Origin: Oscillospiraceae bacterium
GTDB taxonomy: Bacteria; Bacillota; Clostridia; Oscillospirales; CAG-272
Direction: 5' to 3'
NCBI GenBank assembly: GCA_015064545.1
Contig: SVSA01000001.1
Coordinates: 1 to 62,854, forward strand
Length of the DNA stretch: 62,854 nucleotides
Below the pieces are notes generated by a model. The model had not been told where the DNA came from. It saw only the letters and a list, made by a program, of their open reading frames with translations, and ran no database searches. This document shows positions 7,179 through 56,029 of the stretch, in pieces. The first letter of the stretch is position 1. Every line of letters starts with the position of its first letter. The translations under genes were made by a program, and so were the position numbers.

Positions 7179-7203
7179 TGATTCTATGAAAGTGAGGTTT
7201 GTC

Positions 7204-10370: not shown

Positions 10371-10409
10371 CATTCCGAAATTGAATGTCGACATTCCGAA
10401 AATGGAATG
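10371..10409. promoter_or_regulatory. Two adjacent inverted repeats (LTTR-box-like), candidate operator
   Basis: CATTC-N7-GAATG (10371-10387) and CATTCC-N6-GGAATG (10392-10409). The 11-mer ACATTCCGAAA is repeated with 21-bp phasing. Confidence 0.35.
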
Positions 10410-10588
10410 GAAAGAGAGCCGAAAGGTATCAATCTTTTGAATAATCGGGCAAAATGAGCCGAAAAAAATAGAATTCGTGAAAGGATTTTTGTGAAATCGA
10501 AGAAAGGAATTTGCGGCAAATCGGGAAAAATTAATCGATAAAAATATATCGATATGCAATATTTGCATTTCCCATTCGACCTTGTTTT

Positions 10589-10597
10589 TGTTATAAT
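10589..10597 (+). promoter_or_regulatory. Extended -10 element (TGtTATAAT) upstream of the LDH/MDH-family gene
   Basis: TGTTATAAT lies 67 nt upstream of the ATG at 10664. No good -35 at 17 nt. Confidence 0.4.
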
Positions 10598-10663: not shown

Positions 10664-11608
10664 ATGGGAAGAAAAGTTGCCATTATCGGTGCCGGTTATG
10701 TTGGCGCTACCGTTGCGTATACACTGGCTGTCAGCGGTAATGCCTCTGAGGTGGTTTTGATTGATATCAAAGAGGACAAAGCCTTTGGCGAAGCCATGGA
10801 TATTCGTCAGGGAGCACCGTATATTGCGCCGCTTCAGATTTACTCGGGAAGCTATGAGGATGCCAAAGGTGCCGATATTGTGATTTTAACATCCGGTGTG
10901 GCCCGCCGTCCCGGTCAGTCGCGGTTGGATCTGGCACAAATCAATGTCAATATTACCAAGAGTATTATTCCCGATATTACCCGCGTTGCTCCGAACGCCG
11001 TTTATATTATCGTCAGTAATCCGGTGGATATCCTGACTTATGTTTTCTGTAAATATAGTGGCTTGCCTGAAAAGCAGATTATCGGATCGGGCACCATTCT
11101 CGATACCGCACGCTTGCGTTCGCGTTTAGCCGAGAATTTCTCAATCAGTATGCAGAATGTTCACGCCAGTGTCTTTGGAGAGCACGGTGACTCTGCCTTC
11201 GTGCCTTGGTCGCTGGCCACCATCTCGGGCACGCCGGTTGATACCTATGCCCATGCCATCGGACTGGATGTTGACGGTAGCGGCTTCCGCCATGCGGAGA
11301 TCGAAGAATATGTCAGAACCTCCGGCTCCACCATTATCGCTGCCAAGGGTGCCACGTATTATGCCGTTTCGCTGTCGGTCAATCATATCTGCGGCTGTAT
11401 TTTCCGCGGTATCGATACCGCGCTCCCCGTTTCCACGATGATGAATGGCGAGTATGGCATCAGCGATGTTTGTCTCAGTACGCTGTCCGTCATTGGAAAG
11501 GGCGGTGTAAACGGAAAGATCATCTCGCCTTTGACCGATGACGAAATTGCCAAGCTGCAGTTCAGCGCCGGCAAGCTGAAGGAAGTTATTCAAAGTCTTG
11601 TGATCTGA
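10664..11608 (+). CDS. L-lactate/malate dehydrogenase family enzyme (LDH-type backbone); Arg at the Gln102-equivalent position suggests oxaloacetate/malate specificity
   Basis: 314 aa. Rossmann motif VAIIGAGYVG, SNPVDILT, GSGTILDTARLR, GEHGDS. The substrate loop is GVARRPGQSRLDL where LDHs have Q-K-P-G. AAGGAG RBS. Confidence 0.85.
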   Translation: MGRKVAIIGAGYVGATVAYTLAVSGNASEVVLIDIKEDKAFGEAMDIRQGAPYIAPLQIYSGSYEDAKGADIVILTSGVARRPGQSRLDLAQINVNITKSIIPDITRVAPNAVYIIVSNPVDILTYVFCKYSGLPEKQIIGSGTILDTARLRSRLAENFSISMQNVHASVFGEHGDSAFVPWSLATISGTPVDTYAHAIGLDVDGSGFRHAEIEEYVRTSGSTIIAAKGATYYAVSLSVNHICGCIFRGIDTALPVSTMMNGEYGISDVCLSTLSVIGKGGVNGKIISPLTDDEIAKLQFSAGKLKEVIQSLVI

Positions 11609-11663: not shown

Positions 11664-13040
11664 ATGGAGTACCGTATCGAACACGATTCTATGGGTGAGG
11701 TTAAGGTTCCCGCCGACCGTTATTGGGCCGCGCAGACACAGCGCAGTTCTGAGAATTTCAGAATCGGCGTTGGCATCGAGGTTATGCCTCGCGAAATCAC
11801 GCATGCGTTCGGCGTATTAAAAAAGGCCGCGGCTATGGCAAATGCTACGCTTAAGCCCGAAAAAATGACAGCCGAAAAGCTGGCCGTTATTGCCAAAGCC
11901 TGCGATGAGGTGATGAGCGGATCGCTGAACGATCATTTTCCCCTTGTTGTTTGGCAGACCGGATCGGGTACGCAGTCGAATATGAATGCCAATGAAGTCA
12001 TCGCCAACCGTGCCAACGAAATTGCCGGTGCCAAGCTTTGCCATCCCAACGATGATATCAATATGAGCCAGTCCTCCAACGATACCTTTCCCACCGCCAT
12101 GCATATTGCCGCGGTGCTTGGCATCGAGGATAAGCTCCTTCCTGCTATCGACCGCCTGATTGCGACCTTCAAGCGTCTGGAGGCCGAACACGAGGGTATT
12201 GTCAAGAGTGGTCGTACCCATCTTCAGGATGCTACTCCCATTACCTTCTCGCAGGAGATCTCGGGCTGGCGCTCGAGTCTTGAGCGTGACCGTCAGCTTC
12301 TCGTGCTGGCTTTGGCTCCGCTTCATGAGCTGGCGCTCGGCGGTACGGCTGTCGGCACCGGTTTAAATGCTCCCAAGGGCTTCGACGTAGCGGTTGCCAA
12401 TGCGGTTTCGGAAATTACCGGTAAGCAGTTTGTTACGGCTGAGAATAAATTCCACGCCCTCACCTCCAAGGATGAGCTGGTCTTTGCTCACGGTGCGCTA
12501 AAGGCTTTGGCCGCTGATTTGATGAAGATTGCCAACGATGTTCGTTGGCTTGCTTCCGGTCCCCGAGACGGACTCGGTGAAATCGTGATTCCCGAGAATG
12601 AGCCCGGCTCCTCCATCATGCCCGGCAAGGTTAATCCGACGCAGTGTGAGGCGGTAACGATGGTAGCCGTTCAGGTCATGGGGAACGACGTTGCTGTCGG
12701 CATGGCCGCATCGCAGGGTAATTTTGAGCTGAATGTTTTCATGCCTGTCTGCATCTATAATTTCCTGCAGTCGGTTCGCCTTTTGGCCGATGTTATCGTT
12801 TCCTTCAATGATAACTGCGCGGTCGGCATTCAGGCAAACCGCGAAAAAATGCATCATAATCTTCACAATTCGCTGATGCTTGTCACGGCGCTGAATCCCT
12901 ATATCGGATACGAGAATGCCGCCAAGACGGCCAAAAAAGCATTCAAGGATAATATCTCGTTGAAAGAAGCCTGCGTGGCGCTTGGCTTCCTGACCGCAGA
13001 GCGGTTCGACGAGGTCTTCCATCCTGAGCAGATGGTCTGA
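11664..13040 (+). CDS. fumC: Class II fumarate hydratase
   Basis: [28 protein letters not shown], and signature [15 protein letters not shown]. The ATG at 11664 sits 6 nt after AAGGAG and is preferred to the ORF-track start at 11646. Confidence 0.95.
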
Positions 13041-13064
13041 TCACCGACCTGTGAAACTTGATAC

Positions 13065-13090
13065 GGGGCTGCCGTTTTTTCGGCAGCTCC
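13065..13090. other. GC-rich hairpin between fumC and hdrB with no U-tract
   Basis: ggggctgccg / cggcagctcc (10 bp, one G-U pair) around a tttttt loop. No downstream T-run on either strand. Confidence 0.35.
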
Positions 13091-13124
13091 GAAAGCCGTT
13101 TATAAGAGAAAGGAATTTTCCGGA

Positions 13125-13919
13125 ATGAAGTACAGTTATTACCCCGGATGCACGCTGAAAAATAAGGCCAAGGCCCTTGACCGCTATGCCCGTCTTTCGG
13201 CCGAGGCGCTTGGTATCACGCTGGAGGAAATTGCCGAATGGCAGTGTTGCGGCGGTGCTTATACGGCCGCAGGCGATGAGATTGCCACCAAGCTCCCGTC
13301 GGTACGCGCGCTCAAGGCTGCCGAAGCCGAGGGGCAGGATCTTGTCACCCTTTGCTCGGCTTGTCACAATGTGATCAAGCGTGTCCGAAATGATCTTATG
13401 ACAAATGAGGAATTTGCCGCTAAGGTGAATCGCTACATGGCAGACGAGGCGCCTTTTGCCGGTCAGACCAAGGTCGTACATTTTCTTGAGCTGCTCCGTG
13501 ATACGGTTGGCTTTGATACGCTGAAGGCCAGGGTGGTCCATCCGTATACCGGGAAAAAGATTGCAGCCTACTATGGTTGTCTGCTTCTTCGTCCCGGCAA
13601 GGTTTTGGCAATGGACGATCCCGAAAACCCCAAGATCATGGAGGATTTCATCCGTGCAATCGGCGGTGAGCCGGTGATTTATCCGTATCGTAACGAATGC
13701 TGCGGTGCTTACATCACCCTTGAGGATAAGGCCTCGGCGCTGCAGAAGAGCGCAGAGATTATGGCTTCGGCGTCAGGCTTCGGTGCTGATTATGTTATTA
13801 CGGCCTGTCCGCTTTGTCTGTATAATTTGAATGCCGCCTCCTGCGAATCGGCAGGTGTTCTCTATTTTACCGAGCTCTTGGCGAAGGCGCTCGGCGTTGA
13901 CGAGAAGGGGGAGGAATAA
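13125..13919 (+). CDS. hdrB: Heterodisulfide reductase subunit B-like protein (two CCG domains)
   Basis: Two cysteine-rich CCG repeats: YPGC...WQCCGG...LCSACH and YYGC...NECCGA...ACPLC. Confidence 0.85.
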   Translation: MKYSYYPGCTLKNKAKALDRYARLSAEALGITLEEIAEWQCCGGAYTAAGDEIATKLPSVRALKAAEAEGQDLVTLCSACHNVIKRVRNDLMTNEEFAAKVNRYMADEAPFAGQTKVVHFLELLRDTVGFDTLKARVVHPYTGKKIAAYYGCLLLRPGKVLAMDDPENPKIMEDFIRAIGGEPVIYPYRNECCGAYITLEDKASALQKSAEIMASASGFGADYVITACPLCLYNLNAASCESAGVLYFTELLAKALGVDEKGEE

Positions 13920-13922
13920 CTC

Positions 13923-14303
13923 ATGGATGCCCGTAAAGAAGAAATACTGCGCCGTTCCGGCGTGAATGTACGTAAATGCATGAAATGCGGCAAATGTTCG
14001 GGTACCTGTCCTGCCTATGATGAGATGGAGTACCATCCCCACGAGTTTGTGGCGATGGTGGAAAAGGGCGAGATTGATGCGTTGATGCAGTCACCCTCCC
14101 TGTTCAAATGCCTGAGCTGTATGGCTTGCATCGAGCGATGCCCCCGCGATGTTGCGCCCGGCAAGCTTGTTGAGGCCATCCGCCTTGAGGTAATCCGTCA
14201 GCAAGGCATGAATCACCTGAAGGCGGATGCCATTCCGGCCTTGCTTGACGACGATTTGCCACAGCAAGCGCTGATGACTGCTTTCCGAAAGTATAGCAAA
14301 TGA
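13923..14303 (+). CDS. hdrC: Heterodisulfide reductase subunit C-like 2x[4Fe-4S] protein
   Basis: 126 aa with CMKCGKCSGTCP and CLSCMACIERCP. It lies 3 nt after hdrB and has a GGGGAGG RBS. Confidence 0.85.
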   Translation: MDARKEEILRRSGVNVRKCMKCGKCSGTCPAYDEMEYHPHEFVAMVEKGEIDALMQSPSLFKCLSCMACIERCPRDVAPGKLVEAIRLEVIRQQGMNHLKADAIPALLDDDLPQQALMTAFRKYSK

Positions 14304-14325
14304 TCGTTCGAGAGGAGATAGGATA

Positions 14326-16317
14326 ATGCAGAGAATCGGAGTATTTGTCTGTCACTGCGGTACCAATATTGCGGCAACCGTTGATGTGCGTGCCGTGGCA
14401 GAAGCCTTACAGCATGAGCCCGGTGTCGTGATTTCCACCGAGTATCAATATATGTGTTCCGAGGCTGGACAGAACCTTATCAAGGATGCGATTCGCGATC
14501 ATGCTCTGACCGGTATCGTGATCTGCTCGTGCTCCCCCCGCATGCACGAGGCAACCTTCCGCAAAACGGCTGCAGCCGCAGGGCTGAATCCGTACATGGT
14601 TGAAATTGCCAATATTCGCGAGCAGGTTTCGTGGATTCACAAGGATATCCCGGCGGCAACCGAGAAGGCGATTGTTCTCGGACGTGCCGCTATTGCAAAG
14701 GTTCACCTGAATGCCCCGCTTAAGGCCGGTGAAAGCCCGGTCGTCAAGCGTGCGCTTGTCATCGGCGGCGGTATTGCCGGCATTCAGACGGCGCTGGATA
14801 TTGCCGATGCCGGCTTTGAGGTCGATATTGTCGAAAAGGAGCCGACAATCGGCGGTAAAATGACGCAGCTCGACAAGACCTTCCCGACCCTTGACTGTGC
14901 GGCTTGTATCCTCACGCCGAAAATGGTAGACTGCGCACAGCACGAAAAGATCAATATCTATTCGTATAGCGAGGTTTCTGAGGTCAAGGGCTTTGTCGGT
15001 AATTTCCGTGTGACGATCAAGAAAAAAGCGCGTTATGTGGATGAGCTGAAATGCACCGGATGCGGCCTTTGTACCGAAAAATGCCCGCAGAAAAAGGTGC
15101 CGAATGCGTTTAACCTCGGATTGGATAACCGTCGTGCCGTTTACATCCCCTTTGCGCAGGCAGTGCCGAAGGTCGCTACCATTGATGCCGATTACTGCAC
15201 CATGCTCAAGACCGGAAAGTGCGGCGTTTGTGCGAAGGTTTGTACAGCCGGTGCCATTGATTATCAGCAAAAGGATACCTTTGTGGAACGGGAGTACGGC
15301 GCTATTGTCGTAGCTACCGGCTTCAATCCCATTAAGCTGGATGCTTATGAGGAATATGCCTATTCGCAGAGCAAGGATGTCATTACCTCGTTAGAGCTTG
15401 AACGTTTGATGAATGCCGCAGGACCCAACGGCGGCACGCTTTTGCGTCCTTCGGATAAAACCCATCCGCATACCATTGTTTTTGTACAGTGCGTCGGCTC
15501 TCGTTGCGATGACAGCAAGGGTAAGAGCTATTGCTCCAAAATCTGCTGTATGTATACGGCGAAGCACGCGATGCTGATTCGCGAAAAGTATCCCGATACC
15601 GAGGTCTATGTCTTCTATATCGACGTACGTACGCCCGGTAAAAATTTTGATGAATTCTATCGTCGCGCTGTCGAGGAATACGGCGTGCATTACATCAAGG
15701 GCATGGTCGGCAAGGTTCTCCCCGAGCCGGACGGAACGTTGACGGTTCGTGCTTCGGATCTCCTTTCCAATGAACAGCTCAGAATCAAGGCGGATCTCGT
15801 GGTCTTGGCCGCCGCTATTGAGCCCGATAAGAGTGCCCGTCCGCTGGCGACGATGCTGACCGCCAGTATGGATACCAACGACTTCTTTACCGAAGCACAT
15901 CCCAAGCTTCGTCCCGTCGAAAGCCCGACGGCAGGCATTTTCCTGTCCGGTGCTTGTCAGGGACCGAAGGATATCCCCGAAACCGTTTCGCAGGCCGGCG
16001 CCGCCGCCGCGAAGGTGATCGGTCTGCTTGCCAAGGATAAGCTGACTTGTAATCCCTGTGTGGCGAAATCGGATGAGCTGCTTTGCAACGGTTGCTCGTC
16101 CTGTGAAAAGGTGTGCCCCTACGGTGCGATTACTTATGTCGATAAGGAGTTCCGCGGCCCGAATCGCACGACGCTCCTTCGCCGTGTGGCTTCGGTGAAT
16201 GAGGCAGTTTGTCAGGGATGCGGTGCCTGTACCGTGGCATGTCCGTCGGGAGCAATGGATCTCAAGGGCTTTACCAACAGTCAGATCATGGCGGAGGTTG
16301 ACGCAATATGCAAGTAA
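14326..16317 (+). CDS. hdrA: Heterodisulfide reductase subunit A-like FAD/FeS flavoprotein
   Basis: 663 aa. N-terminal GVFVCHCG, FAD motif LVIGGGIAGIQTALDIADAG, and ferredoxin motifs CTGCGLCTEKCP, CGVCAKVC, CNGCSSCEKVCP, CQGCGACTVACP. Confidence 0.9.
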   Translation: MQRIGVFVCHCGTNIAATVDVRAVAEALQHEPGVVISTEYQYMCSEAGQNLIKDAIRDHALTGIVICSCSPRMHEATFRKTAAAAGLNPYMVEIANIREQVSWIHKDIPAATEKAIVLGRAAIAKVHLNAPLKAGESPVVKRALVIGGGIAGIQTALDIADAGFEVDIVEKEPTIGGKMTQLDKTFPTLDCAACILTPKMVDCAQHEKINIYSYSEVSEVKGFVGNFRVTIKKKARYVDELKCTGCGLCTEKCPQKKVPNAFNLGLDNRRAVYIPFAQAVPKVATIDADYCTMLKTGKCGVCAKVCTAGAIDYQQKDTFVEREYGAIVVATGFNPIKLDAYEEYAYSQSKDVITSLELERLMNAAGPNGGTLLRPSDKTHPHTIVFVQCVGSRCDDSKGKSYCSKICCMYTAKHAMLIREKYPDTEVYVFYIDVRTPGKNFDEFYRRAVEEYGVHYIKGMVGKVLPEPDGTLTVRASDLLSNEQLRIKADLVVLAAAIEPDKSARPLATMLTASMDTNDFFTEAHPKLRPVESPTAGIFLSGACQGPKDIPETVSQAGAAAAKVIGLLAKDKLTCNPCVAKSDELLCNGCSSCEKVCPYGAITYVDKEFRGPNRTTLLRRVASVNEAVCQGCGACTVACPSGAMDLKGFTNSQIMAEVDAICK

Positions 16318-16748
16318 ATACCGAATTCAGACCCAAAATCGTGGCGTTCTGCTGTAACTGGTGCTCCTATGCGGGTGCCGATCTGGCAGGTACCAATCGT
16401 TTGCAGTATCCGGCCGATGTCAAGATCATCCGTGTTCCGTGCTCCTGCCGTGTCAATCCGCTTTTCATTCTCCGCGCGTTTCAGCGAGGGGCGGATGGCG
16501 TGATCCTTTGCGGCTGTCATCCCGGCGACTGTCATTATACCACCGGTAACTATTACGCCAGACGGAGAATGACGCTCCTCTTCTCGATGCTCGATTTCTT
16601 GGGTATCGAAAAGGAACGCACCCGTGTTGAATGGGTTTCGGCTGCCGAGGGCGCCAAGTTCGCCGCCACCATGAATGAGTTCGTCGAAACAGTTACCAAG
16701 CTCGGCGAAAACAAGAGACTGGAGGATCTGCGATGCAAGAAATCATGA
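16308..16748 (+). CDS. mvhD: MvhD/FlxD-like [2Fe-2S] electron-transfer protein
   Basis: 146 aa. KIVAFCCNWCSYAGADLAG...RVPCSCRV...ILCGCHPGDCHY. It overlaps the hdrA stop by 10 nt. Confidence 0.9.
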   Translation: MQVNTEFRPKIVAFCCNWCSYAGADLAGTNRLQYPADVKIIRVPCSCRVNPLFILRAFQRGADGVILCGCHPGDCHYTTGNYYARRRMTLLFSMLDFLGIEKERTRVEWVSAAEGAKFAATMNEFVETVTKLGENKRLEDLRCKKS

Positions 16749-17722
16749 AAAAGAAGGCACTTACGCTTCTTGCCGACGGCACGGTTACCCGTGTGCTCGG
16801 CTGGAAACGAGGTGACTTTGTATACGATATCACCCCGGCGGTTTTTGAAACGGCTGAGGAGGTAGAAACGGCGTTTGTCTATAACGCATTTTGCGGCAGT
16901 AATCTTTCCAAATATTTGGTGAAGGAAAGCCGCAAAGAGGGGAAAACTCTTGTTTTTCTTAAGCCCTGTGATTCCTACAGCCTTGCACAGCTTCTGAAAG
17001 AGCATCGCGTGAACCGCGAAAAGGTGTATGTTGTCGGCATCGAATGCTACGGCAAGGCCGACGTGGAGAAGATCCGCGACAAGAAGGGAGCTTCGATAAT
17101 TCGCTCTGTTCGCGAGGAAAACGGTATGCTCTCCGTTCGCGGCCTTGTCGATGCCGATGCCTCCATTCCCCTGTACGAAGTGCTGTTGGAAAAATGCGAG
17201 TCCTGCAAGAGCAAGAAGCATCCGATTTACGATGAGCTTCTCGGCGATGAGGGGGAGGTTGTCGAGGACTGTAATCGCTTTGATTTGGTTGCTCGGTTAG
17301 AGGCGATGACGCCCGATGAGCGGTATGAATTCTGGCGCGGTGAGTTGTCCCGTTGCATCCGTTGCAACGCTTGCCGCAATGTCTGCCCGGCTTGCACCTG
17401 CGAAAAATGCATTTTCGACAACGATGTTTCGGGCGTGGCGCAAAAGGCCGCCGCCGACAGCTTTGAAGAGAATATGTTCCATATTATCCGTGCCTTCCAC
17501 GTGGTTGGCCGTTGCACCGACTGCGGCGAATGCAGCCGAGTCTGCCCGCAGCACATTCCGCTTCATCTGCTGAATCGAAAGTTTATCAAGGATATCAATG
17601 AGCTATACGGCGAATATCAAGCTGGTGCCGATCCCGATACTCGTCCGCCGCTGGTTAACTACACCTTAAGTGATGCCGAGCCGAGTATTGTCCATACGAG
17701 AGGAGGAAAAGACAATGGTTAA
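16733..17722 (+). CDS. flxC: FlxC-like 2x[4Fe-4S] iron-sulfur protein
   Basis: 329 aa with CIRCNACRNVCPACTC and CTDCGECSRVCP. GGAGGA RBS. It overlaps mvhD by 16 nt. The name is assigned by position in the flxDCBA order. Confidence 0.6.
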   Translation: MQEIMKKKALTLLADGTVTRVLGWKRGDFVYDITPAVFETAEEVETAFVYNAFCGSNLSKYLVKESRKEGKTLVFLKPCDSYSLAQLLKEHRVNREKVYVVGIECYGKADVEKIRDKKGASIIRSVREENGMLSVRGLVDADASIPLYEVLLEKCESCKSKKHPIYDELLGDEGEVVEDCNRFDLVARLEAMTPDERYEFWRGELSRCIRCNACRNVCPACTCEKCIFDNDVSGVAQKAAADSFEENMFHIIRAFHVVGRCTDCGECSRVCPQHIPLHLLNRKFIKDINELYGEYQAGADPDTRPPLVNYTLSDAEPSIVHTRGGKDNG

Positions 17723-18746
17723 GGTTTCTCCGATCGATCTTTTCCCCGCGATTGCCAAGACGCAAAAGCTTTATGTGCCGGATGGCAGTCAGTGCTCGGG
17801 CATGGAGCTTCACAAGCCCTTCAAGGAATGGAAGGCCGATAAAAACGCGCCTTGCGAAAAGGTCAGAACACCGAAGGACTTTTTCTTCCCCCAAACCGAA
17901 AATCTGATGGCGTTCAAGCGGGAAGGGAAGACCATTGAGGTTATCGATACCCGTGAGGAAAAGGAAGATTTTGTGATCTTCGGTGTCCGCGCCTGCGATG
18001 TCCGTTCCTTTGCCATTCTGGATAAGGTTTTCCTTGCAGATCCTGTGGACACGTATTACAAAAACCGCCGCGAGCACGCTACGGTCATTTCGTGGGCCTG
18101 CTCTCCCGAATGGATGCGTGAGACCTGCTTCTGCCAGACCTTCGGTATCGACTGTGCCGATCCCGAGGGCGATGTGGCGGCTTGGTTTGACGGCAGCTTC
18201 TTTTACCTCGAGGCCAAAACCGAAAAGGGTGAGATGCTTCTGGATCGCATAAAGGATGTACTGATCGCGTGTGATGAGGAGCCTGTGTGGGATCTGAAAA
18301 CGGCAATTTACACCGCGAAGAAGGAGCTTCCCCTGGCCGGTCTGACCACCGACGGATTCACGCCCGAAAAGATGATGGAATATTTTAATTCCGAAAAATG
18401 GGGTGAGCTATCCGAGGCTTGTCTTGGCTGCGGCAGCTGTACCTTCGTGTGCCCGACCTGCCAGTGCTACGATATTCGCGACTTTGATACCGGCCATGGG
18501 ATCAAGCGCTTCCGCTGCTGGGATTCGTGTATGTATTCCGACTTTACCAAGATGGCTCATGGCAATCCCCGCGTCAGCCAGTTAGAGCGCTTCCGTCAGC
18601 GCTTTATGCATAAGCTGGTGTATTTCCCCGCCAATAATGAGGGGGAATTCGGTTGCGTGGGATGCGGACGCTGTCTTTCCAAATGCCCGATCTCCATGAA
18701 CATCGTTAAGGTTATGAAAGCATTAAAGGAAGGTGATAACCGATGA
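17715..18746 (+). CDS. flxB: FlxB-like iron-sulfur protein (AsrA / sulfhydrogenase beta-subunit-like)
   Basis: ATG at 17715 after AGGAGGA. Motifs: FGVRACDVRSFAILD, CLGCGSCTFVCPTCQC, CVGCGRCLSKCP. It overlaps flxC by 8 nt. Confidence 0.65.
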   Translation: MVKVSPIDLFPAIAKTQKLYVPDGSQCSGMELHKPFKEWKADKNAPCEKVRTPKDFFFPQTENLMAFKREGKTIEVIDTREEKEDFVIFGVRACDVRSFAILDKVFLADPVDTYYKNRREHATVISWACSPEWMRETCFCQTFGIDCADPEGDVAAWFDGSFFYLEAKTEKGEMLLDRIKDVLIACDEEPVWDLKTAIYTAKKELPLAGLTTDGFTPEKMMEYFNSEKWGELSEACLGCGSCTFVCPTCQCYDIRDFDTGHGIKRFRCWDSCMYSDFTKMAHGNPRVSQLERFRQRFMHKLVYFPANNEGEFGCVGCGRCLSKCPISMNIVKVMKALKEGDNR

Positions 18747-19567
18747 AGGAAACATTGATTCCCGTCGTAGGCGTGGTAACCGATATTCGTATCGATACCC
18801 CCGATGTCAAAACCTTCCGCGTGGTCACACCGGAGGGCAAAAAGCCCTTTGAGCATATGCCCGGACAGTGTGCCATGGTCTCGATTCCCGGTGTCGGTGA
18901 GGCGATGTTCTCGATCACCTCGTCGCCCACCAATCGCGAGTTTATGGAATTCAGTATTAAAAAATGCGGCTGTCTGACCGAATGGCTTCATGTGATGGAG
19001 GTTGGTCAGCAGGTCACAGTTCGCGGCCCTTACGGAAACGCTTTTCCGGTGGAAACCGAGCTGAAGGGCAAGAATCTTCTCTTTGTGGCGGGCGGTATCG
19101 GCCTGGCGCCGCTCCGCTCGGTCATTAACTACTGCCGTCATTATCGTGAGAACTATGGAACCATTGATATTGTGTACGGTTCACGCTCCAAGGATGATCT
19201 TGTGGACTATCAGGAGATTATCGACGAATGGATGACAACCGAGGGTGTCAATGTCCACCTCACGATCGACCGCGAGCAGGAGGGATGGGACGGTCATGTC
19301 GGCTTTGTCCCCAATTATGTCAAGGAGCTGAATCCCGATCTCAGCAAAACCGTTTTGGTTTGCGGCCCTCCGATCATGATCAAGTTTACGCTGGCCGGTC
19401 TCAAGGAGCTTGGTTTTACCGAAGAGCAGGTCTACACGACAATGGAGCTTCGTATGAAATGCGGTGTCGGCAAGTGCGGCCGTTGCAATATCGGAAATCG
19501 ATATGTTTGCAAGGATGGCCCCGTTTTCCGTTATGATAAGCTGGGCGAGCTTCCCGATGAATATTGA
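18743..19567 (+). CDS. flxA: FlxA-like FAD/NAD(P)-binding oxidoreductase with a C-terminal [2Fe-2S] (AsrB/PyrK/HydG-like)
   Basis: 274 aa. FNR-like fold (FSITSSP, LLFVAGGIGLAPLRS, VLVCGPPIM) and CGVGKCGRCNIGNRYVCKDGPVF. ATGA overlap with flxB. Confidence 0.75.
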   Translation: MKETLIPVVGVVTDIRIDTPDVKTFRVVTPEGKKPFEHMPGQCAMVSIPGVGEAMFSITSSPTNREFMEFSIKKCGCLTEWLHVMEVGQQVTVRGPYGNAFPVETELKGKNLLFVAGGIGLAPLRSVINYCRHYRENYGTIDIVYGSRSKDDLVDYQEIIDEWMTTEGVNVHLTIDREQEGWDGHVGFVPNYVKELNPDLSKTVLVCGPPIMIKFTLAGLKELGFTEEQVYTTMELRMKCGVGKCGRCNIGNRYVCKDGPVFRYDKLGELPDEY

Positions 19568-19621
19568 GAAGTGCTCCAGCACCGCAAGAAAATCTTTTGA
19601 ATATTTAGGAGAATGAATACC

Positions 19622-20296
19622 ATGGAGACAATGGTTAACATCTTTTTGTACGGAAAGAAGTACGAGGTGCCGTCCAACCTGACCATTATGGGTGCGATGG
19701 AATATGCCGGCTATCAGCTTGTCCGCGGCTGCGGCTGCCGAAACGGCTTCTGCGGTGCCTGCGCCACGATCTACCGCATTCACGGTGATCGTGAGCTCAA
19801 GGTTTGCCTTGCTTGCCAGACCAAGGTGGAAAACAATATGTATATTGCAACCTTGCCGTTCTTCCCGCTTGTCAAGCAGGTTTACGATATCAACGAGGTC
19901 AAAACCACCGAGCAGGTTATGATGCAGCTCTATCCCGAGATTTATGCCTGTATCGGCTGTAACGCCTGCACCAAATCCTGCACACAGGGCCTCAACGTTA
20001 TGCAGTATATTGCCTATGCACAGCGCGGTGACTTTGAAAAATGTGCCGAGGAATCTTTTGACTGCGTTATGTGTGGTGTCTGCTCCTCGCGTTGCCCCGC
20101 CGGTATTTCGCATCCGCAGGTGGCGCTTTTGGCAAGACGTATCAACGGAAAGTATCTGGCACCGGCTTGCGGTCATCTTGAGGACCGTGTCAAGGAAATC
20201 GAAAACGGCACCTTCGAGGAGCTGCTCGAAAGCCTGATGCAAAAGCCGATTGCCGAGATGAAAGAGCTCTACAATACCCGTGAGATCGAGAAATAA
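19622..20296 (+). CDS. Succinate dehydrogenase/fumarate reductase iron-sulfur subunit-like protein (FrdB/SdhB-like)
   Basis: N-terminal 2Fe-2S ferredoxin-like CGCRNGFCGACATIY...CLAC, then CIGCNACTKSC and CVMCGVCSSRCP. The ATG at 19622 is 9 nt after AGGAGA. The ORF-track ATG at 19613 abuts the RBS. Confidence 0.75.
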   Translation: METMVNIFLYGKKYEVPSNLTIMGAMEYAGYQLVRGCGCRNGFCGACATIYRIHGDRELKVCLACQTKVENNMYIATLPFFPLVKQVYDINEVKTTEQVMMQLYPEIYACIGCNACTKSCTQGLNVMQYIAYAQRGDFEKCAEESFDCVMCGVCSSRCPAGISHPQVALLARRINGKYLAPACGHLEDRVKEIENGTFEELLESLMQKPIAEMKELYNTREIEK

Positions 20297-20310
20297 GGAG
20301 GAGAGCGACG

Positions 20311-21909
20311 ATGTATCTGAATGAAATGCTGGAATCCATCCGCAAGGTCGAGGCCAAGCGCGCCGAAAATGCCGTTCTTGAGCCGCGCCGTATGACGGCT
20401 GAAGAAAAGGAAACTCTCCTTGCTACGTACCATCCGGATTATAAGCAGGAGGAATTTGCCGTATTGACCGTCGGTCCGAACAAGGGCGATAAGGTTCCGA
20501 CCGAGCTTGCCGCGCTTCTGCAGGCAAACAGCCGTGTGAAGCCGGAGGAGATCGATTTATCGAAAGTAGACTATGATGTCGATGTCCTGGTCATTGGTGG
20601 CGGCGGTGCCGGTTCTTCAGCGGCTATCGAGGCACATCAAAACGGGGCAAAGGTTATGATTGTGACCAAGCTTCGCATCGGTGATGCTAATACAATGATG
20701 GCCGAAGGCGGTATTCAGGCGGCCGATAAGCCCAACGATTCGCCTGCGATTCACTATCTGGATGCCTTTGGTGGCGGTCACTTTGCCGCCAAGCCGGAGC
20801 TTCTTTATAGGCTCGTAAGCGAAGCGCCCGATGCGATCAAGTGGCTCTCTGAGCTGGGCGTGGAGTTTGATAAAATGCCCGATGGCACCATGGTTACCAC
20901 CCATGGCGGCGGCACCTCCCGTAAGAGAATGCACGCGGCCAAGGACTACTCGGGTGCAGAAATTATGCGTACGCTACGCGACGAAGTGCTGAATCGTGAG
21001 ATTCCGGTTGTCGACTTTACGGCCGCGATTGAGCTGATTCTGGACGAAAACGGCAGAGCCGCCGGCGCGGTACTGCTGAATATGGAGACCAAGGAAATTT
21101 TGGTTGCCCGTGCCAAGACGGTCGTTATCGCTACCGGCGGCGCCGGACGTTTGCACTACCAAGGCTTCCCGACCTCCAATCACTACGGGGCGACGGCGGA
21201 TGGTCTGGTGCTTGGCTACCGTGCCGGCGCTAAGCTTCTCTATGCCGACACGCTGCAGTATCATCCGACCGGTGCGGCCTATCCCGAGCAGATTTTCGGC
21301 GCACTGGTTACCGAGAAGGTTCGTTCGCTTGGTGCTAAGCTGATTAACTGCGACGGCGAGGCCTTCATGCATCCGCTGGAAACTCGTGATGTTTCGGCCG
21401 CTTCGATCATCCGCGAATGTTCAACGCACGGCAAGGGCGTCAAGACCCCTGACGGCATTGGTGTTTGGCTTGACACACCGATGATCGAGCTGAAAAACGG
21501 TGAAGGAACCATCGAAAAGAGAATCCCCGCCATGATGCGTATGTTCGGTAAGTATGGTATCGATATTCGCAAAGAGCCGATTTTGGTATATCCGACGCTG
21601 CATTATCAGAACGGCGGCCTTGACATCGGCCCCGACTGTATGACAACTTGTGTGGAGAACCTTTTTGTTGCCGGCGAGGCAGTGGGCGGCATTCATGGCA
21701 GAAACCGTCTCATGGGTAACTCACTTCTGGATATCATTGTTTTCGGCCGCGATGCCGGTAAGAGTGCTTCTGCTCGTGCAAAGGACGTTACGGTCGGTGC
21801 CTTGACGCTGGATCATGTGACAAAATTTGCTTCGGAGATGAAGGATGCCGGTATCGAAACCGATGTTGTCTCTCCCAAGCTTCTTCCCAACTATACGCGT
21901 AAGGTTTAA
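20311..21909 (+). CDS. FrdA/SdhA/NadB-superfamily FAD flavoprotein (soluble fumarate reductase-like) with a ~90-aa N-terminal extension
   Basis: 532 aa. DVLVIGGGGAGSSAA starts at residue ~91. Other motifs: MMAEGGIQAA, QYHPTG, TEKVRSLGA, HGRNRLMGNSLLD. AAGGAGGAG RBS. Confidence 0.8.
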   Translation: MYLNEMLESIRKVEAKRAENAVLEPRRMTAEEKETLLATYHPDYKQEEFAVLTVGPNKGDKVPTELAALLQANSRVKPEEIDLSKVDYDVDVLVIGGGGAGSSAAIEAHQNGAKVMIVTKLRIGDANTMMAEGGIQAADKPNDSPAIHYLDAFGGGHFAAKPELLYRLVSEAPDAIKWLSELGVEFDKMPDGTMVTTHGGGTSRKRMHAAKDYSGAEIMRTLRDEVLNREIPVVDFTAAIELILDENGRAAGAVLLNMETKEILVARAKTVVIATGGAGRLHYQGFPTSNHYGATADGLVLGYRAGAKLLYADTLQYHPTGAAYPEQIFGALVTEKVRSLGAKLINCDGEAFMHPLETRDVSAASIIRECSTHGKGVKTPDGIGVWLDTPMIELKNGEGTIEKRIPAMMRMFGKYGIDIRKEPILVYPTLHYQNGGLDIGPDCMTTCVENLFVAGEAVGGIHGRNRLMGNSLLDIIVFGRDAGKSASARAKDVTVGALTLDHVTKFASEMKDAGIETDVVSPKLLPNYTRKV

Positions 21910-21931: not shown

Positions 21932-23191
21932 ATGACAATATTTGGTGGTGTTATCACGATCAGCAATATTTCCACCCTGCTTTTCGTGGTGTTCGCCGTT
22001 TTGACGGTTGGTTATGCGCTGGGAAGAATTACGATTAAAGGCGTTTCGCTCGGCGATGCCGGTGTGTTTATTATCGCACTTTTGTTCGGTGCGCTGTTCT
22101 TCCATGTAGATGCGACAGGGCTTATCTTCAGCGGCTCTGCCAAGCCTTACGACTTTTCCGCGGGACTTTCTCTCGTTGAGAGCCTTGGTCTTGTGCTGTT
22201 TGTGACCTCGGTCGGTTTTATCGCCGGGCCGAAGTTCTTTGGCAATTTCAAGCGGAATTTTAAATCGTATGTTCTGATCGGGCTTGTCATTATCCTGGCC
22301 GGCGGCCTCTCTGCTGCCGGATGTATCGGCTTGGGTGAGGTCGTCGGCTATGGCGGCACAATTACCGAGCAGGACGGCTTTGTGGCTATGATTGTCGGTC
22401 TTCTTTCCGGCTCCCTGACCTCAACACCCGCCTTCTCGGCGGCGAAAGCGTCGGTGGCGGAGGAGTATCAGTCTCTTGTTTCAGTGGGACACGGTATTGC
22501 TTACATCTTCGGCGTCATTGGCGTTGTGCTTTTCGTGCAGTTGATTCCCAAGCTTTCACGGGCCAATATGGCAGAGGAAAGAGCCAAGCTTATCGTCAAG
22601 GAAGAGGACACAAAAGAATCCCCGGTGAGAAAGCTCTTTGAGATCGACCATATGGGTATCGCCGCCTTTTCGTTGGCCGCGATTCTGGGTACCGTTATCG
22701 GACAGATCAAAATCCCGCTGTCTGCCCAGGGTCTCAGCGGTACCTGCTTCTCGTTGACGACGACGGGCGGCTGTCTCTTGGTCAGCCTTATTATGGGACA
22801 TTTCGGACGTATCGGAAAGGTCAGCATGATGCCGGCGGCCGGTACGCTGAAGCTTTTCCGCGAGCTCGGACTGGTGTTCTTCCTTGTCGGTGCCGGTATT
22901 CCCGGCGGTGCCGAATTTGTGGAAAACTTTGATGCCATGTATTTTGTCTACGGTATCCTTATGACAATCGTTCCGATGATCGTCGGTTTCCTGTTTGCCA
23001 AATATGTCCTGAAGCTCAGCCTTCTGAATAATCTTGGCTCCATTACGGGCGGTATGACCTCCACGCCGGCGCTCGGAACGCTGATCGGTGTTTCCGGTAC
23101 CGAGGATGTGGCCGCCGCCTATGCGGCAACCTATCCGATCGCTCTGATTGCGGTGGTATTGGTATCTCAATTTCTGATTGTCTTGTTCTGA
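21932..23191 (+). CDS. AAE (aspartate:alanine exchanger / YidE / YbjL / SucE) family transporter, short form
   Basis: 419 aa polytopic membrane protein. Two homologous hydrophobic halves are joined by a ~35-aa charged loop (ANMAEERAKLIVKEEDTKESPVRK). AAGGAGG RBS. Confidence 0.7.
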   Translation: MTIFGGVITISNISTLLFVVFAVLTVGYALGRITIKGVSLGDAGVFIIALLFGALFFHVDATGLIFSGSAKPYDFSAGLSLVESLGLVLFVTSVGFIAGPKFFGNFKRNFKSYVLIGLVIILAGGLSAAGCIGLGEVVGYGGTITEQDGFVAMIVGLLSGSLTSTPAFSAAKASVAEEYQSLVSVGHGIAYIFGVIGVVLFVQLIPKLSRANMAEERAKLIVKEEDTKESPVRKLFEIDHMGIAAFSLAAILGTVIGQIKIPLSAQGLSGTCFSLTTTGGCLLVSLIMGHFGRIGKVSMMPAAGTLKLFRELGLVFFLVGAGIPGGAEFVENFDAMYFVYGILMTIVPMIVGFLFAKYVLKLSLLNNLGSITGGMTSTPALGTLIGVSGTEDVAAAYAATYPIALIAVVLVSQFLIVLF

Positions 23192-23199
23192 TATATTTT

Positions 23200-23233
23200 A
23201 TAGGGGCTGCCGCATTTTTGCGGCAGCCCCTAT
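23200..23233 (+). terminator. Hairpin terminator closing the hdr-flx-frd-transporter array
   Basis: 15-bp perfect stem ataggggctgccgca / tgcggcagcccctat with a 4-nt loop, 9 nt after the stop. No strong T-run. Confidence 0.6.
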
Positions 23234-23261
23234 TGACAAAAAGGGAAGAATCGTATATAAT
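23233..23261 (+). promoter_or_regulatory. Consensus sigma-A promoter of rex
   Basis: TTGACA (23233-23238), 17-nt spacer, TATAAT (23256-23261). Confidence 0.65.
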
Positions 23262-23311: not shown

Positions 23312-23959
23312 ATGGAGGTTTCCCAACAGGTATCAATCAATACTCTGCAGCGCTTACCACGTTACCTCAATTACTTGAAAACAATTGAAGATAAAGACAA
23401 TATTTCGTCGACCGAGATTGCGAAGGCGCTTGGTCTGAACGATGTACAGGTTCGCAAGGATCTTTCGGCCGTCAGCTCGGGCGGACGCCCCAAGGTAGGC
23501 TACAACATTTGTGCCTTGGTTGCGGATTTGAAGGAATTTCTCGGCTATAATGCGCAAAACGATGCGGTGCTTGTCGGCGCCGGTAATCTTGGCCGTGCGC
23601 TGATGTCCTATCGCGGCTTCAGCGAATACGGTCTTCGTATTGTGGCAGGCTTCGATCCTTCCAAAGAGCTGATTGGCAAGGAAAGCGGCGGCAAGCCGAT
23701 TTTCGACCTTGCCGGGCTTCCTGCATATTGCCGTGACAACGGCATTAAGATTGGTGTTATCACGACACCGGCAAGTGCGGCGCAAAGCGCTTGCGATCTT
23801 TTGATTGAAGGCGGAATCAAGGCAATCTGGAATTTCGCACCGGCGCACCTTACCGTTCCGGAAGAGGTTCTCGTGCAAAACGAAAACATGGCTTGCTCGC
23901 TGGCGCTGCTTTCCAAGCACCTGCATGAAATGCTGGATGGTCGCAACGGTGATTCCTGA
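23312..23959 (+). CDS. rex: Redox-sensing transcriptional repressor Rex
   Basis: 215 aa. TLQRLPRYLNYL, SSTEIAKALGLNDVQVRKDLS, and NAD(H) Rossmann motif VLVGAGNLGRAL. Confidence 0.93.
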   Translation: MEVSQQVSINTLQRLPRYLNYLKTIEDKDNISSTEIAKALGLNDVQVRKDLSAVSSGGRPKVGYNICALVADLKEFLGYNAQNDAVLVGAGNLGRALMSYRGFSEYGLRIVAGFDPSKELIGKESGGKPIFDLAGLPAYCRDNGIKIGVITTPASAAQSACDLLIEGGIKAIWNFAPAHLTVPEEVLVQNENMACSLALLSKHLHEMLDGRNGDS

Positions 23960-23989: not shown

Positions 23990-25282
23990 ATGATCTCTTA
24001 CAAAAACACATCAACCGAAGAGCTCAAAGAGCATCTGGCATCGCTGAAGGCGGTGTACAAGGAATATCAAGGCATGGATTTGCGCCTGAATATGGCGCGC
24101 GGAAAGCCCTCCAATGATCAGCTTGATCTTTCGATGGGCATGATGGATATTCTCAGCTCACAGGATGACCTCACGTGTGAAGACGGTACCGACTGCCGGA
24201 ATTACGGTGTTTTAGACGGTATCGGAGAAGCCAAGCAGCTTCTTGGCGATATGATGGAGGTACCAGCGGAGAACATCATTATTTACGGCAATTCCAGCTT
24301 GAATGTCATGTATGACACGGTTTCTCGCTCCATGACACACGGGGTTATGGGCAATACACCGTGGTGCAAGCTCGATCGGGTGAAGTTCCTTTGTCCGGTG
24401 CCCGGGTATGACCGTCACTTTGCCATTACGGAATACTTTGGCATCGAAATGATTCCGATTCCCATGACCGAATTCGGCCCCGATATGGATCTTGTCGAAA
24501 AGTATGTCAGCGAGGATGAGAGCATTAAAGGTATTTGGTGTGTGCCGAAGTACAGCAATCCACAGGGATATTCGTATTCCGATGAAACGGTTCGCCGCTT
24601 TGCCGCCCTTGAGCCGAAGGCGAAGGATTTCCGAATTTATTGGGATAATGCCTATACCATTCACCATCTTTACGATGAGGATAGGGATTACATTCTTGAG
24701 ATTTTAGAGGAATGCCGTAAGGCAGGCCATCCCGATATGGTCTATAAATTCGCATCAACCTCTAAAATCAGCTTCCCCGGCTCCGGTATTGCCGCCATCG
24801 CCGCCTCGCACAATAACCTCGATGACATCCGCGATCAGCTGACCATTCAAACCATCGGGCACGATAAGGTGAATCAGCTGCGTCATGTACGCTTCTTTGG
24901 CGATATCGATGGCATGAACGCGCATATGCGTAAGCACGCCGATATTCTTCGCCCCAAGTTTGAGACAGTCCTTGAAATTCTCGAGCGAGAGCTTGGCGGT
25001 CTTGGTATTGGTAGCTGGACTAAGCCCAAGGGCGGTTACTTTATCTCGTTTGACTCGCTCGACGGCTGTGCCAAGGCGATTGTATCACGGTGTAAGAAGG
25101 CCGGTGTTGTTATGACCGGTGCCGGCGCTACCTATCCCTACGGACGTGACCCGCAGGATGCCAATATCCGTATTGCACCGTCTTATCCTCCGTTGGCCGA
25201 TCTCAAGCTGGCGACCGAGCTCTTTACGCTTTGTGTTAAGATCGTTAGCATCGAAAAGATCTTGAGCGAACGCGGTGCTTGA
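23990..25282 (+). CDS. Class I/II PLP-dependent aminotransferase (substrate unassigned; aspartate aminotransferase-like)
   Basis: 430 aa. Motifs: NMARGKPS, CVPKYSNPQG, and PLP-lysine context FASTSKISFPGSG. Confidence 0.75.
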   Translation: MISYKNTSTEELKEHLASLKAVYKEYQGMDLRLNMARGKPSNDQLDLSMGMMDILSSQDDLTCEDGTDCRNYGVLDGIGEAKQLLGDMMEVPAENIIIYGNSSLNVMYDTVSRSMTHGVMGNTPWCKLDRVKFLCPVPGYDRHFAITEYFGIEMIPIPMTEFGPDMDLVEKYVSEDESIKGIWCVPKYSNPQGYSYSDETVRRFAALEPKAKDFRIYWDNAYTIHHLYDEDRDYILEILEECRKAGHPDMVYKFASTSKISFPGSGIAAIAASHNNLDDIRDQLTIQTIGHDKVNQLRHVRFFGDIDGMNAHMRKHADILRPKFETVLEILERELGGLGIGSWTKPKGGYFISFDSLDGCAKAIVSRCKKAGVVMTGAGATYPYGRDPQDANIRIAPSYPPLADLKLATELFTLCVKIVSIEKILSERGA

Positions 25283-25307: not shown

Positions 25308-25336
25308 ACGAACCCCGACATACCGTCGGGGTTCGT
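25308..25336. terminator. Bidirectional hairpin terminator between convergent genes
   Basis: 12-bp stem acgaaccccgac / gtcggggttcgt, flanked by aaaaa upstream and gtttt downstream. Confidence 0.7.
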
Positions 25337-27061: not shown

Positions 27062-27094
27062 GGTAAAATAACAATACCTTTCGGAGTGAATAAC

Positions 27095-52104: not shown

Positions 52105-52135
52105 GATAATATAAATATGTATGCGGAGGATCAAC

Positions 52136-53521: not shown

Positions 53522-53552
53522 TCCAAGATATCACATATAAAGGAGTATGAGT

Positions 53553-54800: not shown

Positions 54801-54867
54801 TGGTAATAACGGGAAGTACGGGAGAAAGTCTCCCGTACTTCCGAAATTTTGTGAAAGGATTTGTTTT

Positions 54868-56016: not shown

Positions 56017-56029
56017 AAAGGAGAATAGT

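Follow-up and report, generated by a model that had tools for sequence, protein, structure and literature searches.

A conserved gut-clostridial operon that joins an Hdr-Flx array to an anchor-less FrdB/FrdA pair: a candidate for NADH-driven, ferredoxin-coupled fumarate reduction

Our study reports on a block of redox genes from an Oscillospiraceae bacterium, carried on a stretch of 62,854 nt (contig SVSA01000001.1, assembly GCA_015064545.1, forward strand) that was analysed whole and is referred to here as the window. Judged from gene content and order, the block is a 12-gene 'succinate operon', mdh-fumC-hdrBCA-mvhD-flxCBA-frdBA-transporter, in which a seven-gene Flx-Hdr module is followed directly by a soluble FrdB/FrdA pair. 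The reading that we find best supported, and towards which we lean with measured confidence, is that Flx-Hdr bifurcates electrons to ferredoxin and, by way of FrdBA, to fumarate. The family assignments show that the locus encodes a route from oxaloacetate through malate and fumarate to succinate, together with a probable exporter.

The gene cluster, its conservation and its cofactor sites

The twelve genes of the operon are:

10664-11608, forward strand: mdh, a lactate dehydrogenase (LDH)-like malate dehydrogenase with Ldh_1_N and Ldh_1_C domains
11664-13040, forward strand: fumC, a class II fumarase (TIGR00979 fumC_II, 716.8 bits against a cut-off of 664.75)
13125-13919, forward strand: hdrB-like, two CCG domains (PF02754 twice)
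13923-14303, forward strand: hdrC-like, two [4Fe-4S] clusters (TIGR03290, E 6.8e-18)
14326-16317, forward strand: hdrA, FAD and multiple [4Fe-4S] clusters, the candidate bifurcating flavoprotein (703 bits to 5odc_A; HdrA2 model, 808 bits)
16308-16748, forward strand: mvhD/flxD, a [2Fe-2S] connector (PF02662 FlpD, E 5.9e-57)
16733-17722, forward strand: flxC-like iron-sulfur protein (two CxxCxxCxxxCP motifs)
17715-18746, forward strand: flxB-like iron-sulfur protein of the AsrA/sulfhydrogenase-beta type (PF17179 Fer4_22, E 2.9e-30; 9nez_B, E 1e-35)
18743-19567, forward strand: flxA, an FNR-type FAD/NAD(P)H module with a C-terminal [2Fe-2S] cluster (FAD_binding_6, NAD_binding_1, DHODB_Fe-S_bind)
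19613-20296, forward strand: frdB-like iron-sulfur subunit (2Fe-2S plus dicluster; alignment with E. coli FrdB)
20311-21909, forward strand: frdA-like flavoprotein (PF00890, E 1.2e-68)
21932-23191, forward strand: transporter of the AspT/YidE/YbjL (AAEx) family (PF06826 twice, E 6.3e-51)

The original prediction, made from the sequence, had described the nine genes from hdrB to frdA as one tightly packed, co-directional array, and open reading frames with Pfam and NCBIfam matches back each assignment at the positions it gave. Recomputing the junctions reproduced its spacings (hdrB-hdrC +3, hdrC-hdrA +22, hdrA/mvhD -10, mvhD/flxC -16, flxC/flxB -8, flxB/flxA -4 and frdB-frdA +14 nt), with flxA-frdB at +45 or +54 nt according to whether frdB begins at ATG 19613 or ATG 19622. 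The flxC/flxB value takes flxB from ATG 17715, which has a GAGGAGG ribosome-binding site ahead of it; the longest flxB reading frame begins at GTG 17670, and that of fumC at GTG 11646. The cysteine motifs listed for HdrB, HdrC, MvhD, FlxC, FlxB and FlxA are all present, as is the GxGxxG motif of HdrA; of the four ferredoxin-type motifs ascribed to HdrA, we count three canonical CxxCxxCxxxCP motifs plus further cysteine clusters. Neither the list of open reading frames nor the domain search contains a membrane anchor gene of the FrdC/D or SdhC/D type, in agreement with the prediction, and the first strong hairpin after the block lies at 23200-23233, with no terminator before it, again as predicted. 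The nine genes stand, while the unit to which they belong is larger than had been proposed, with mdh and fumC upstream and the transporter downstream.

Relatives of the window FrdA were collected in a scan of one genome per species, which gave at least 600 pattern matches, at least 591 of them confirmed as relatives. Gene order was counted around the best 80 of these at least 591 relatives, which are 76-88% identical to the window FrdA, with the loci that have enough flanking DNA as denominators. The core hdrBCA-mvhD-flxCBA-frdBA is complete and collinear in 59/60 loci, from many genera, and this recurrence of the same order means that the cluster is not a chance feature; the original prediction had asked whether the neighbourhood is kept in relatives, and it is. 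fumC lies upstream in 54/58 loci and mdh in 45/57, and the AAEx transporter is directly downstream in 42/69; the chromosome of Solibaculum mannosilyticum has the same gene order. The best 80 carriers are gut and rumen Clostridia, including Oscillospiraceae, Acutalibacteraceae and Ruminococcus (one a metagenome-assembled genome (MAG) labelled R. flavefaciens), with Christensenella tenuis, Yeguia hominis, Faecousia and Congzhengia as further carriers. Treponema, Bacteroides uniformis and Bacteroidaceae appear as the labels of a few MAGs, which may be due to errors of binning or labelling. Database relatives of FrdA include 98-86% identical proteins from gut Clostridia.

The active-site alignment, the cluster ligands of FrdB and the fold match all agree with the earlier assignment of the downstream pair as FrdB/FrdA-like, and we regard FrdBA as very probably a fumarate reductase. 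In alignment with FrdA and NadB of E. coli MG1655, residues H232, T244, E245, R248, R287, H355 and R390 of E. coli FrdA correspond to H318, T334, E335, R338, R359, H431 and R466 of the window protein, and all seven of these fumarate-site residues are kept in family members down to 40% identity. An AlphaFold (AF2) model of the flavoprotein (predicted local distance difference test score, pLDDT, 87.9; pTM 0.89) has E. coli FrdA (5vpn_A) as its best Foldseek match, with a template-modelling (TM) score of 0.70. His44, the site of covalent FAD attachment in E. coli FrdA, is replaced by Asn127 (DANT in place of SHT), and on sequence grounds the FAD is bound non-covalently. Non-covalent FAD makes an enzyme of this kind a one-way fumarate reducer. 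The C-terminal helical domain is absent: there is no PF02910 match, and the alignment stops approximately 100-170 residues before the C-termini of NadB and FrdA. At the other end the protein carries a conserved N-terminal extension of 87 residues (20311-20571) with HPDY and GxNxG[DE] motifs and no Pfam match. The model builds this segment with confidence (pLDDT 79-96), as a hairpin of helices and some short strands, and the segment may stand in for the absent C-terminal domain or serve as a surface for docking. The flavoprotein is claimed by no curated model, and public records name it 'FAD-dependent oxidoreductase'. Its best-scoring named family is TfrA (NF004900), at 341.6 bits against a cut-off of 718 over positions 6-413 of the 546 in the model; over the core it shares 45% identity with P0192, a genuine TfrA that reaches 765 bits.

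The FrdB-like subunit keeps every cluster ligand of E. coli FrdB, with C42, C47, C50 and C68 for the [2Fe-2S] cluster, C113, C116, C119 and C123 in the first dicluster motif and C151, C154, C157 and C161 in the second. C154 sits where E. coli has Val (3Fe-4S), and the distal cluster is predicted to be [4Fe-4S] instead of [3Fe-4S]; this would fit a non-quinone partner, since quinone-linked enzymes have [3Fe-4S] at that place. The subunit is without a CCG domain, the CCG domains being on the separate HdrB. FrdB, HdrC and HdrB match positions 17-148, 131-220 and 415-486 of the TfrB model, and together they look like a disassembled TfrB, the methanogen subunit in which an FrdB module and two CCG domains are fused. 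A natural FrdB-FrdA fusion (P0122) supports the two subunits acting as one unit. The C-terminal tail of FrdB, absent from a stand-alone relative (L085), was considered as an Hdr-docking element and dropped, as the stand-alone fusion P0122 keeps a similar segment.

The Hdr-Flx proteins have the cofactor sites of their namesakes. The match of HdrA to the structurally characterized bifurcating HdrA 5odc_A spans residues 3-660, at a score comparable to those of methanogen HdrAs among themselves. All 10 CCG cysteines of HdrB align with methanogen HdrB (8rvv_B), providing the ligands for two non-cubane [4Fe-4S] clusters, and HdrC is an HdrC/QmoC-type dicluster protein with CxxCxxCxxxCP motifs at residues 19 and 63. 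MvhD carries FCCNWC...PCSC...CGCHPGDCHY. FlxC and FlxB have two CxxCxxCxxxCP motifs each, and the C-terminal part of FlxC resembles FdhB of Fdh-Hdr complexes (9t1s_M, 7bkb_E), where FdhB feeds MvhD. FlxA and FlxB together resemble the sulfhydrogenase gamma and beta subunits and AsrAB, and FlxA, which is AsrB/HydG-like, has CGVGKCGRC in its C-terminal part.

The remaining three genes of the operon strengthen fumarate as the substrate far beyond what an FrdA-like domain alone would allow, because mdh and fumC lie upstream and the AAEx transporter downstream. The LDH-family product of mdh has Arg at the substrate-discriminating position (GVARRPGQSRLDL) and is for that reason assigned as a malate dehydrogenase; Arg at this position (the Q102R rule) marks malate against lactate dehydrogenases. 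From its family and position, the transporter probably exports a C4-dicarboxylate, namely succinate.

Proposed electron flow and competing explanations

What the sequences show directly is the set of parts, with the cofactor sites and the conservation of the linkage; from these we infer every electron-transfer step, the complex and the bifurcation. We propose that NAD(P)H would be oxidized at FlxA, the presumed entry point for NADH, and that electrons would pass by way of FlxB and FlxC to FlxD (MvhD) and on to the FAD of HdrA, where electron pairs would be split. One electron would move uphill through the ferredoxin domains of HdrA to ferredoxin, while the other would run downhill through HdrC and the CCG clusters of HdrB into the three-cluster chain of FrdB, the flavin of FrdA and fumarate. 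Summed up, the scheme would amount to 2 NADH + Fd(ox) + fumarate -> 2 NAD+ + Fd(red) + succinate, and re-oxidation of the reduced ferredoxin by Rnf or a hydrogenase would give quinone-free energy conservation from fumarate reduction. Bifurcation is energetically feasible, since we calculate approximately -33 to -49 kJ/mol for this reaction (E0' of -320 mV for NADH, +33 mV for fumarate and -420 to -500 mV for ferredoxin). The reverse reaction, succinate oxidation by confurcation, was considered and rejected on the basis of the non-covalent FAD and of potentials, as the mean of +33 and approximately -450 mV lies well above -320 mV.

Our confidence differs between the parts of this scheme. That FrdBA is fed from NAD(P)H by Flx-Hdr appears probable, and bifurcation to ferredoxin is the outcome that we would expect by a modest preference. 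Direct wiring inside one complex, in place of a diffusible carrier, is finely balanced and tips slightly to the negative; the fuller proposal, that all nine proteins form a single soluble FlxABCD-HdrABC-FrdAB supercomplex in which the non-cubane clusters of HdrB relay electrons into FrdB with no disulfide reduction, is tentative. Such a supercomplex would be the first in which HdrA-based flavin bifurcation uses the C=C bond of fumarate as its high-potential acceptor, and would imply a quinone-free, Rnf- or hydrogenase-linked 'fumarate respiration' in hundreds of species of gut and rumen Clostridia, among them the classic Ruminococcus flavefaciens-type producers of succinate. If the mechanism holds, it would explain how quinone- and cytochrome-free Clostridia conserve energy with succinate formation, and fumarate would become one of the few high-potential acceptors known to drive flavin-based electron bifurcation.

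Several observations weigh against bifurcation within such a complex. The 62.8-kb window holds no ferredoxin, Rnf or hydrogenase gene. HdrB has a complete disulfide-reductase cluster site, which a pure electron relay would not need. Reduction of fumarate by NADH is strongly exergonic even when uncoupled, at approximately -58 kJ/mol (PMC13147460). In tubeworm symbionts with a comparable cluster, the tfrAB genes of Endoriftia are expressed in a pattern unlike that of the other cluster genes (PMC11636981). No biochemical or structural evidence for an Flx-Hdr-Frd complex was found in the literature or the Protein Data Bank (PDB), and searches of a PDB copy gave no entry for Flx-Hdr or for the clade of this FrdA. 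Relatives of FrdBA also occur apart from Hdr-Flx: in a Congzhengia MAG (L074, 8079-11605), the single exception among the 60 loci, a 77% identical frdBA has a CitMHS transporter ahead of it and no hdr or flx gene nearby; in L090 (5250-7433) a 727-aa FrdB-FrdA fusion, 58% identical, stands alone with no hdr or flx gene within 5 kb upstream; L085 and L086 have the frdBA pair alone; and L083 (9366-12891), on a proteobacterial-looking contig, has frdB and frdA followed by a NuoF-like gene (Complex1_51K and NADH_4Fe-4S domains), with an FrdA 47% identical to that of the window. The original prediction had named independent function of the FrdAB-like pair as grounds for abandoning it, a condition on which the Hdr-Flx-free relatives in L074, L085, L086 and L090 bear in part.

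Judged from its domains, the L083 cluster could represent a minimal soluble NADH:fumarate reductase of other design, and L084 likewise has frdB, frdA and a NuoF-like gene. The flavoprotein gene occurs alone in L087, L091 and L092. A further arrangement is seen on a metagenome contig (L082, 811-9771), where korDABC, encoding a 2-oxoacid:ferredoxin oxidoreductase, precedes hdrA-mvhD-hdrC-hdrB-frdB-frdA and the FrdA is 57% identical; no flx gene is visible, the contig ends upstream, and the arrangement resembles the Endoriftia reductive tricarboxylic acid (rTCA) cluster. Going by these neighbourhoods, FrdBA is a portable terminal reductase joined to several input modules (Hdr-Flx, Hdr next to Kor, or NuoF-like) or to none. 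Because relatives occur alone or with a NuoF-like gene, the pair is able to accept electrons from donors other than Hdr-Flx and coupling to Hdr is not obligatory; this modularity supports its role as a terminal reductase, yet cautions against assuming an obligatory complex.

These observations bear differently on the alternatives to bifurcation. Flx-Hdr could be only an electron wire from NADH to FrdBA, with no ferredoxin reduced, as in a non-bifurcating soluble NADH:fumarate reductase of the Hydrogenobacter thermophilus kind; we consider this unlikely, although the uncoupled reaction is sufficiently exergonic, a soluble multi-subunit NADH-dependent fumarate reductase has been characterized in H. 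thermophilus as summarized in PMC13147460, and the FrdBA of L083 is paired with a single NuoF-like NADH module. Against it stand a full-length HdrA, in which no ferredoxin-domain cluster of bifurcating HdrA is missing, and the retention of seven genes in 59/60 loci, where one NuoF-like gene would suffice; also, the sensitivity of succinate formation to H2 in Pseudoclostridium thermosuccinogenes (PMC7282089) fits ferredoxin coupling. A thiol relay, in which Flx-Hdr would reduce a disulfide (of a small thiol or DsrC-like protein) at HdrB and the thiol would in turn reduce fumarate, as with methanogen Mvh-Hdr and TfrAB, would make use of the intact 10-cysteine site of HdrB and would suit both the rank of TfrA as top named family for the flavoprotein and the name 'thiol:fumarate reductase' given to the symbiont homologues (bioRxiv 10.1101/363564; PMC11636981). 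The FrdB-like subunit, however, is without the CCG domain that is the thiol-oxidizing module of TfrB, the flavoprotein, at 342 bits, stays below the TfrA cut-off of 718, and no gene for a DsrC/TusE-like protein or thiol carrier was found in the operon, here or in the 80 related loci; a relay of this kind thus appears rather improbable.

It is also improbable that the two halves of the cluster are independent enzymes, with FrdBA reduced by ferredoxin or flavodoxin from elsewhere, Flx-Hdr serving another acceptor and the linkage reflecting co-regulated redox balancing. Stand-alone pairs and fusions (L074, L085, L086, L090) and a distal [4Fe-4S] cluster compatible with a low-potential soluble donor are what this explanation would lead one to expect, but it leaves aside the near-invariant gene order with overlapping or very short junctions in many genera, finds no alternative high-potential Hdr acceptor encoded nearby, and would spend reduced ferredoxin on fumarate, a waste of energy. 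The last alternative, also raised by the original prediction, is that the flavoprotein is of L-aspartate-oxidase type or acts on some other unsaturated acid, and we judge it very unlikely indeed. The nadB model does match at 265 bits, an aspartate aminotransferase gene and the AspT-family transporter are close by and point to aspartate metabolism, and the fumarase barely reaches the aspartase subfamily cut-off (510.5 against 510). The nadB score is nevertheless far under its cut-off of 452.75, and Glu121 of NadB, a residue diagnostic of that enzyme, is His198 here, at a position variable across the family; furthermore, the flavoprotein has an FrdB partner with all cluster ligands present, the lyase passes the fumC equivalog cut-off with mdh conserved upstream, and the aspartate aminotransferase gene adjoins the cluster in only 1/80 loci. 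Bifurcation to ferredoxin and fumarate thus remains the reading that we favor.

Flanking genes and regulatory elements

The features around and between the operon genes are:

9365-10309, forward strand: LysR-family regulator gene (PF00126 HTH_1, E 6.6e-18), with its own terminator-like hairpin after it
10371-10409, no strand assigned: two LysR-box-like inverted repeats, CATTCCGAAATTGAATG and CATTCCGAAAATGGAATG, read from the sequence and of putative function
10569-10597, forward strand: promoter-like site before mdh, TTCCCA-17-TATAAT with TG (a consensus match only, 10/12)
13064-13091, forward strand: moderate 11-bp hairpin without T-tail between fumC and hdrB (84-nt gap, -27.9 kcal/mol, z = -2.5)
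23200-23233, forward strand: 15-bp GC-rich hairpin with a weak T-tail (120-nt intergenic segment, -48.7 kcal/mol, z = -7.8)
23233-23261, forward strand: rex promoter, TTGACA-17-TATAAT (12/12 consensus matches)
23312-23959, forward strand: rex, encoding the redox-sensing repressor Rex, a context gene (NF003994, 276.9 bits against a cut-off of 130)
23990-25282, forward strand: type Ic aspartate aminotransferase gene (aspartate <-> oxaloacetate), a context gene (NF053594, 668.9 bits against a cut-off of 435)
25308-25336: strong terminator after the aspartate aminotransferase gene

At the upstream end, a perfect palindrome (ATGCAATATTTGCAT, 10554-10568) abuts the promoter-like site of mdh, and it and the two inverted repeats are candidate operators for the adjacent LysR protein or another regulator; a LysR homologue lies upstream of the cluster in only 2/80 loci. 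At the downstream end, the hairpin at 23200-23233 is likely, from its predicted structure, to be the end of the transcription unit. The hairpin between fumC and hdrB was considered as a conserved attenuator or terminator and rejected, as the gap in 55 related loci is mostly short (median 28 nt, against 84 nt in the window) and hairpin-free. The hairpins at 13066-13087 and 23204-23227 have the same arms (GGGCTGCCG...CGGCAGC) and flank the ten-gene block from hdrB to the transporter. Across the 62.8 kb no other site has such arms, where chance alone would give 0, and the upstream one is not kept in relatives; the matching hairpins could reflect a shared terminator style or be the trace of a block insertion beside mdh-fumC.

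Rex is a possible regulator of the operon by its position, and rex adjoins the cluster in approximately 16/80 loci. Scans of the window with two operator patterns, TTGTGAAN4TTCACAA and TTGTTAAN4TTAACAA (up to three mismatches), turned up no Rex box close to the operon, the number of sites not exceeding that expected at random, and because of this the adjacency of rex gives no demonstrated regulatory link. Elsewhere in the window, 52121-57103 is an unrelated L-rhamnose utilization cluster (FGGY kinase, RhaA isomerase, a PHP-like open reading frame without clear family and a RhaD-like aldolase); the open reading frame at 7180-8469, after an asparagine synthase gene, has a weak ATP-grasp/carbamoyl-phosphate-synthase-like match and no clear family; and that at 27086-27739 (217 aa), ahead of a cysteine desulfurase gene, has no family match.

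Relation to known systems

The hypothesis of a bifurcating Flx-Hdr-fumarate reductase is already published, and the window operon is a further member from a gut Clostridia lineage. The 'succinate operon' of P. thermosuccinogenes comprises genes for fumarate hydratase, seven Flx-Hdr proteins and two fumarate-reductase subunits, with a putative succinate transporter gene at its end (Koendjbiharie et al. 2020, PMC7282089); it is co-regulated and up approximately 4-fold at low CO2, and succinate production collapses under H2 (PMC7282089). As cited there, a 2019 preprint by Koendjbiharie and van Kranenburg puts forward the same bifurcation hypothesis. Set beside that published description, P. thermosuccinogenes being absent from the 80 loci, the window has the same gene list and the same proposed function, NADH-driven, ferredoxin-coupled fumarate reduction; it adds the LDH-like mdh before fumC, and its host is a gut organism of Oscillospirales type. 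The original prediction knew of no biochemically characterized Flx-Hdr-Frd complex, and our literature searches for a biochemically characterized bifurcating fumarate reductase likewise found none, although neither the operon nor the bifurcation hypothesis is new; a 2026 survey still terms the NADH-fumarate-ferredoxin coupling 'suggested' (PMC13147460). What our analysis adds to the published proposals is that gut and rumen bacteria of Oscillospirales type carry the operon very widely and in strongly conserved form, that mdh and the transporter are parts of the unit, that FrdBA departs from complex II in binding its FAD non-covalently, in lacking the C-terminal domain, in having a conserved extension at the N-terminus and in having 4Fe-4S for 3Fe-4S, and that one FrdBA module is combined with Hdr-Flx, with Hdr next to Kor, with a NuoF-like protein or with no input module. 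Succinate is a key cross-feeding metabolite of gut and rumen and an industrial product, and the enzyme bears on its formation in both habitats.

The same coupling has been proposed for tubeworm symbionts, in which flxABCD-hdrABC is interleaved with tfrAB and korABCD (Rubin-Blum 2018/2019, bioRxiv 10.1101/363564; Mitchell 2024, PMC11636981), and the Hdr-Flx/tfrAB/kor cluster of Endoriftia is co-expressed (bioRxiv 10.1101/363564; PMC11636981; PMC13147460). The clusters of Ca. Endoriftia persephone and Thioflavicoccus mobilis share with the window an anchor-less FrdAB-type reductase beside flxABCD-hdrABC. Their setting is an autotrophic rTCA one, with 2-oxoglutarate:ferredoxin oxidoreductase and ATP-citrate lyase, whereas that of the window is fermentative, with mdh, fumC and an exporter and without kor, and the gene order differs. 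The soluble five-subunit NADH-dependent fumarate reductase of H. thermophilus (Miura et al. 2008), as far as PMC13147460 describes it, is like the window system in having an FrdAB pair with extra subunits that are not anchors. It has no HdrA/MvhD/Flx module, and its description is that of a simple NADH:fumarate reductase. Some of its extra subunits are reportedly Hdr-like.

All seven subunit types of FlxABCD-HdrABC from Desulfovibrio vulgaris, with their cofactor motifs, are present in the window, but in the order hdrBCA-flxDCBA, with no DsrC-type acceptor in evidence and with a fumarate reductase attached. The D. vulgaris system (Ramos et al. 2015) is proposed to use NADH to reduce both ferredoxin and a disulfide acceptor, DsrC. 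Methanogen TfrAB and the window FrdBA are both soluble and anchor-less, and a CCG module figures in both systems; TfrB also has a [2Fe-2S] and two [4Fe-4S] clusters. In contrast to TfrA, the window flavoprotein falls below the TfrA cut-off, is without the C-terminal domain and has an N-terminal extension. The CCG domains of the window are on a separate HdrB, and its donor would be NADH by way of HdrA, whereas TfrAB uses free CoM-SH and CoB-SH. The window HdrA, HdrB, HdrC and MvhD are full-length homologues of their counterparts in the methanogen MvhAGD-HdrABC and Fdh-Hdr complexes (5odc, 7bkb, 8rvu). The input in the window is an FNR-type NAD(P)H flavoprotein, in place of the hydrogenase or formate dehydrogenase of the methanogen complexes, and the proposed acceptor is fumarate, reached through FrdBA, where the methanogen complexes reduce CoM-S-S-CoB.

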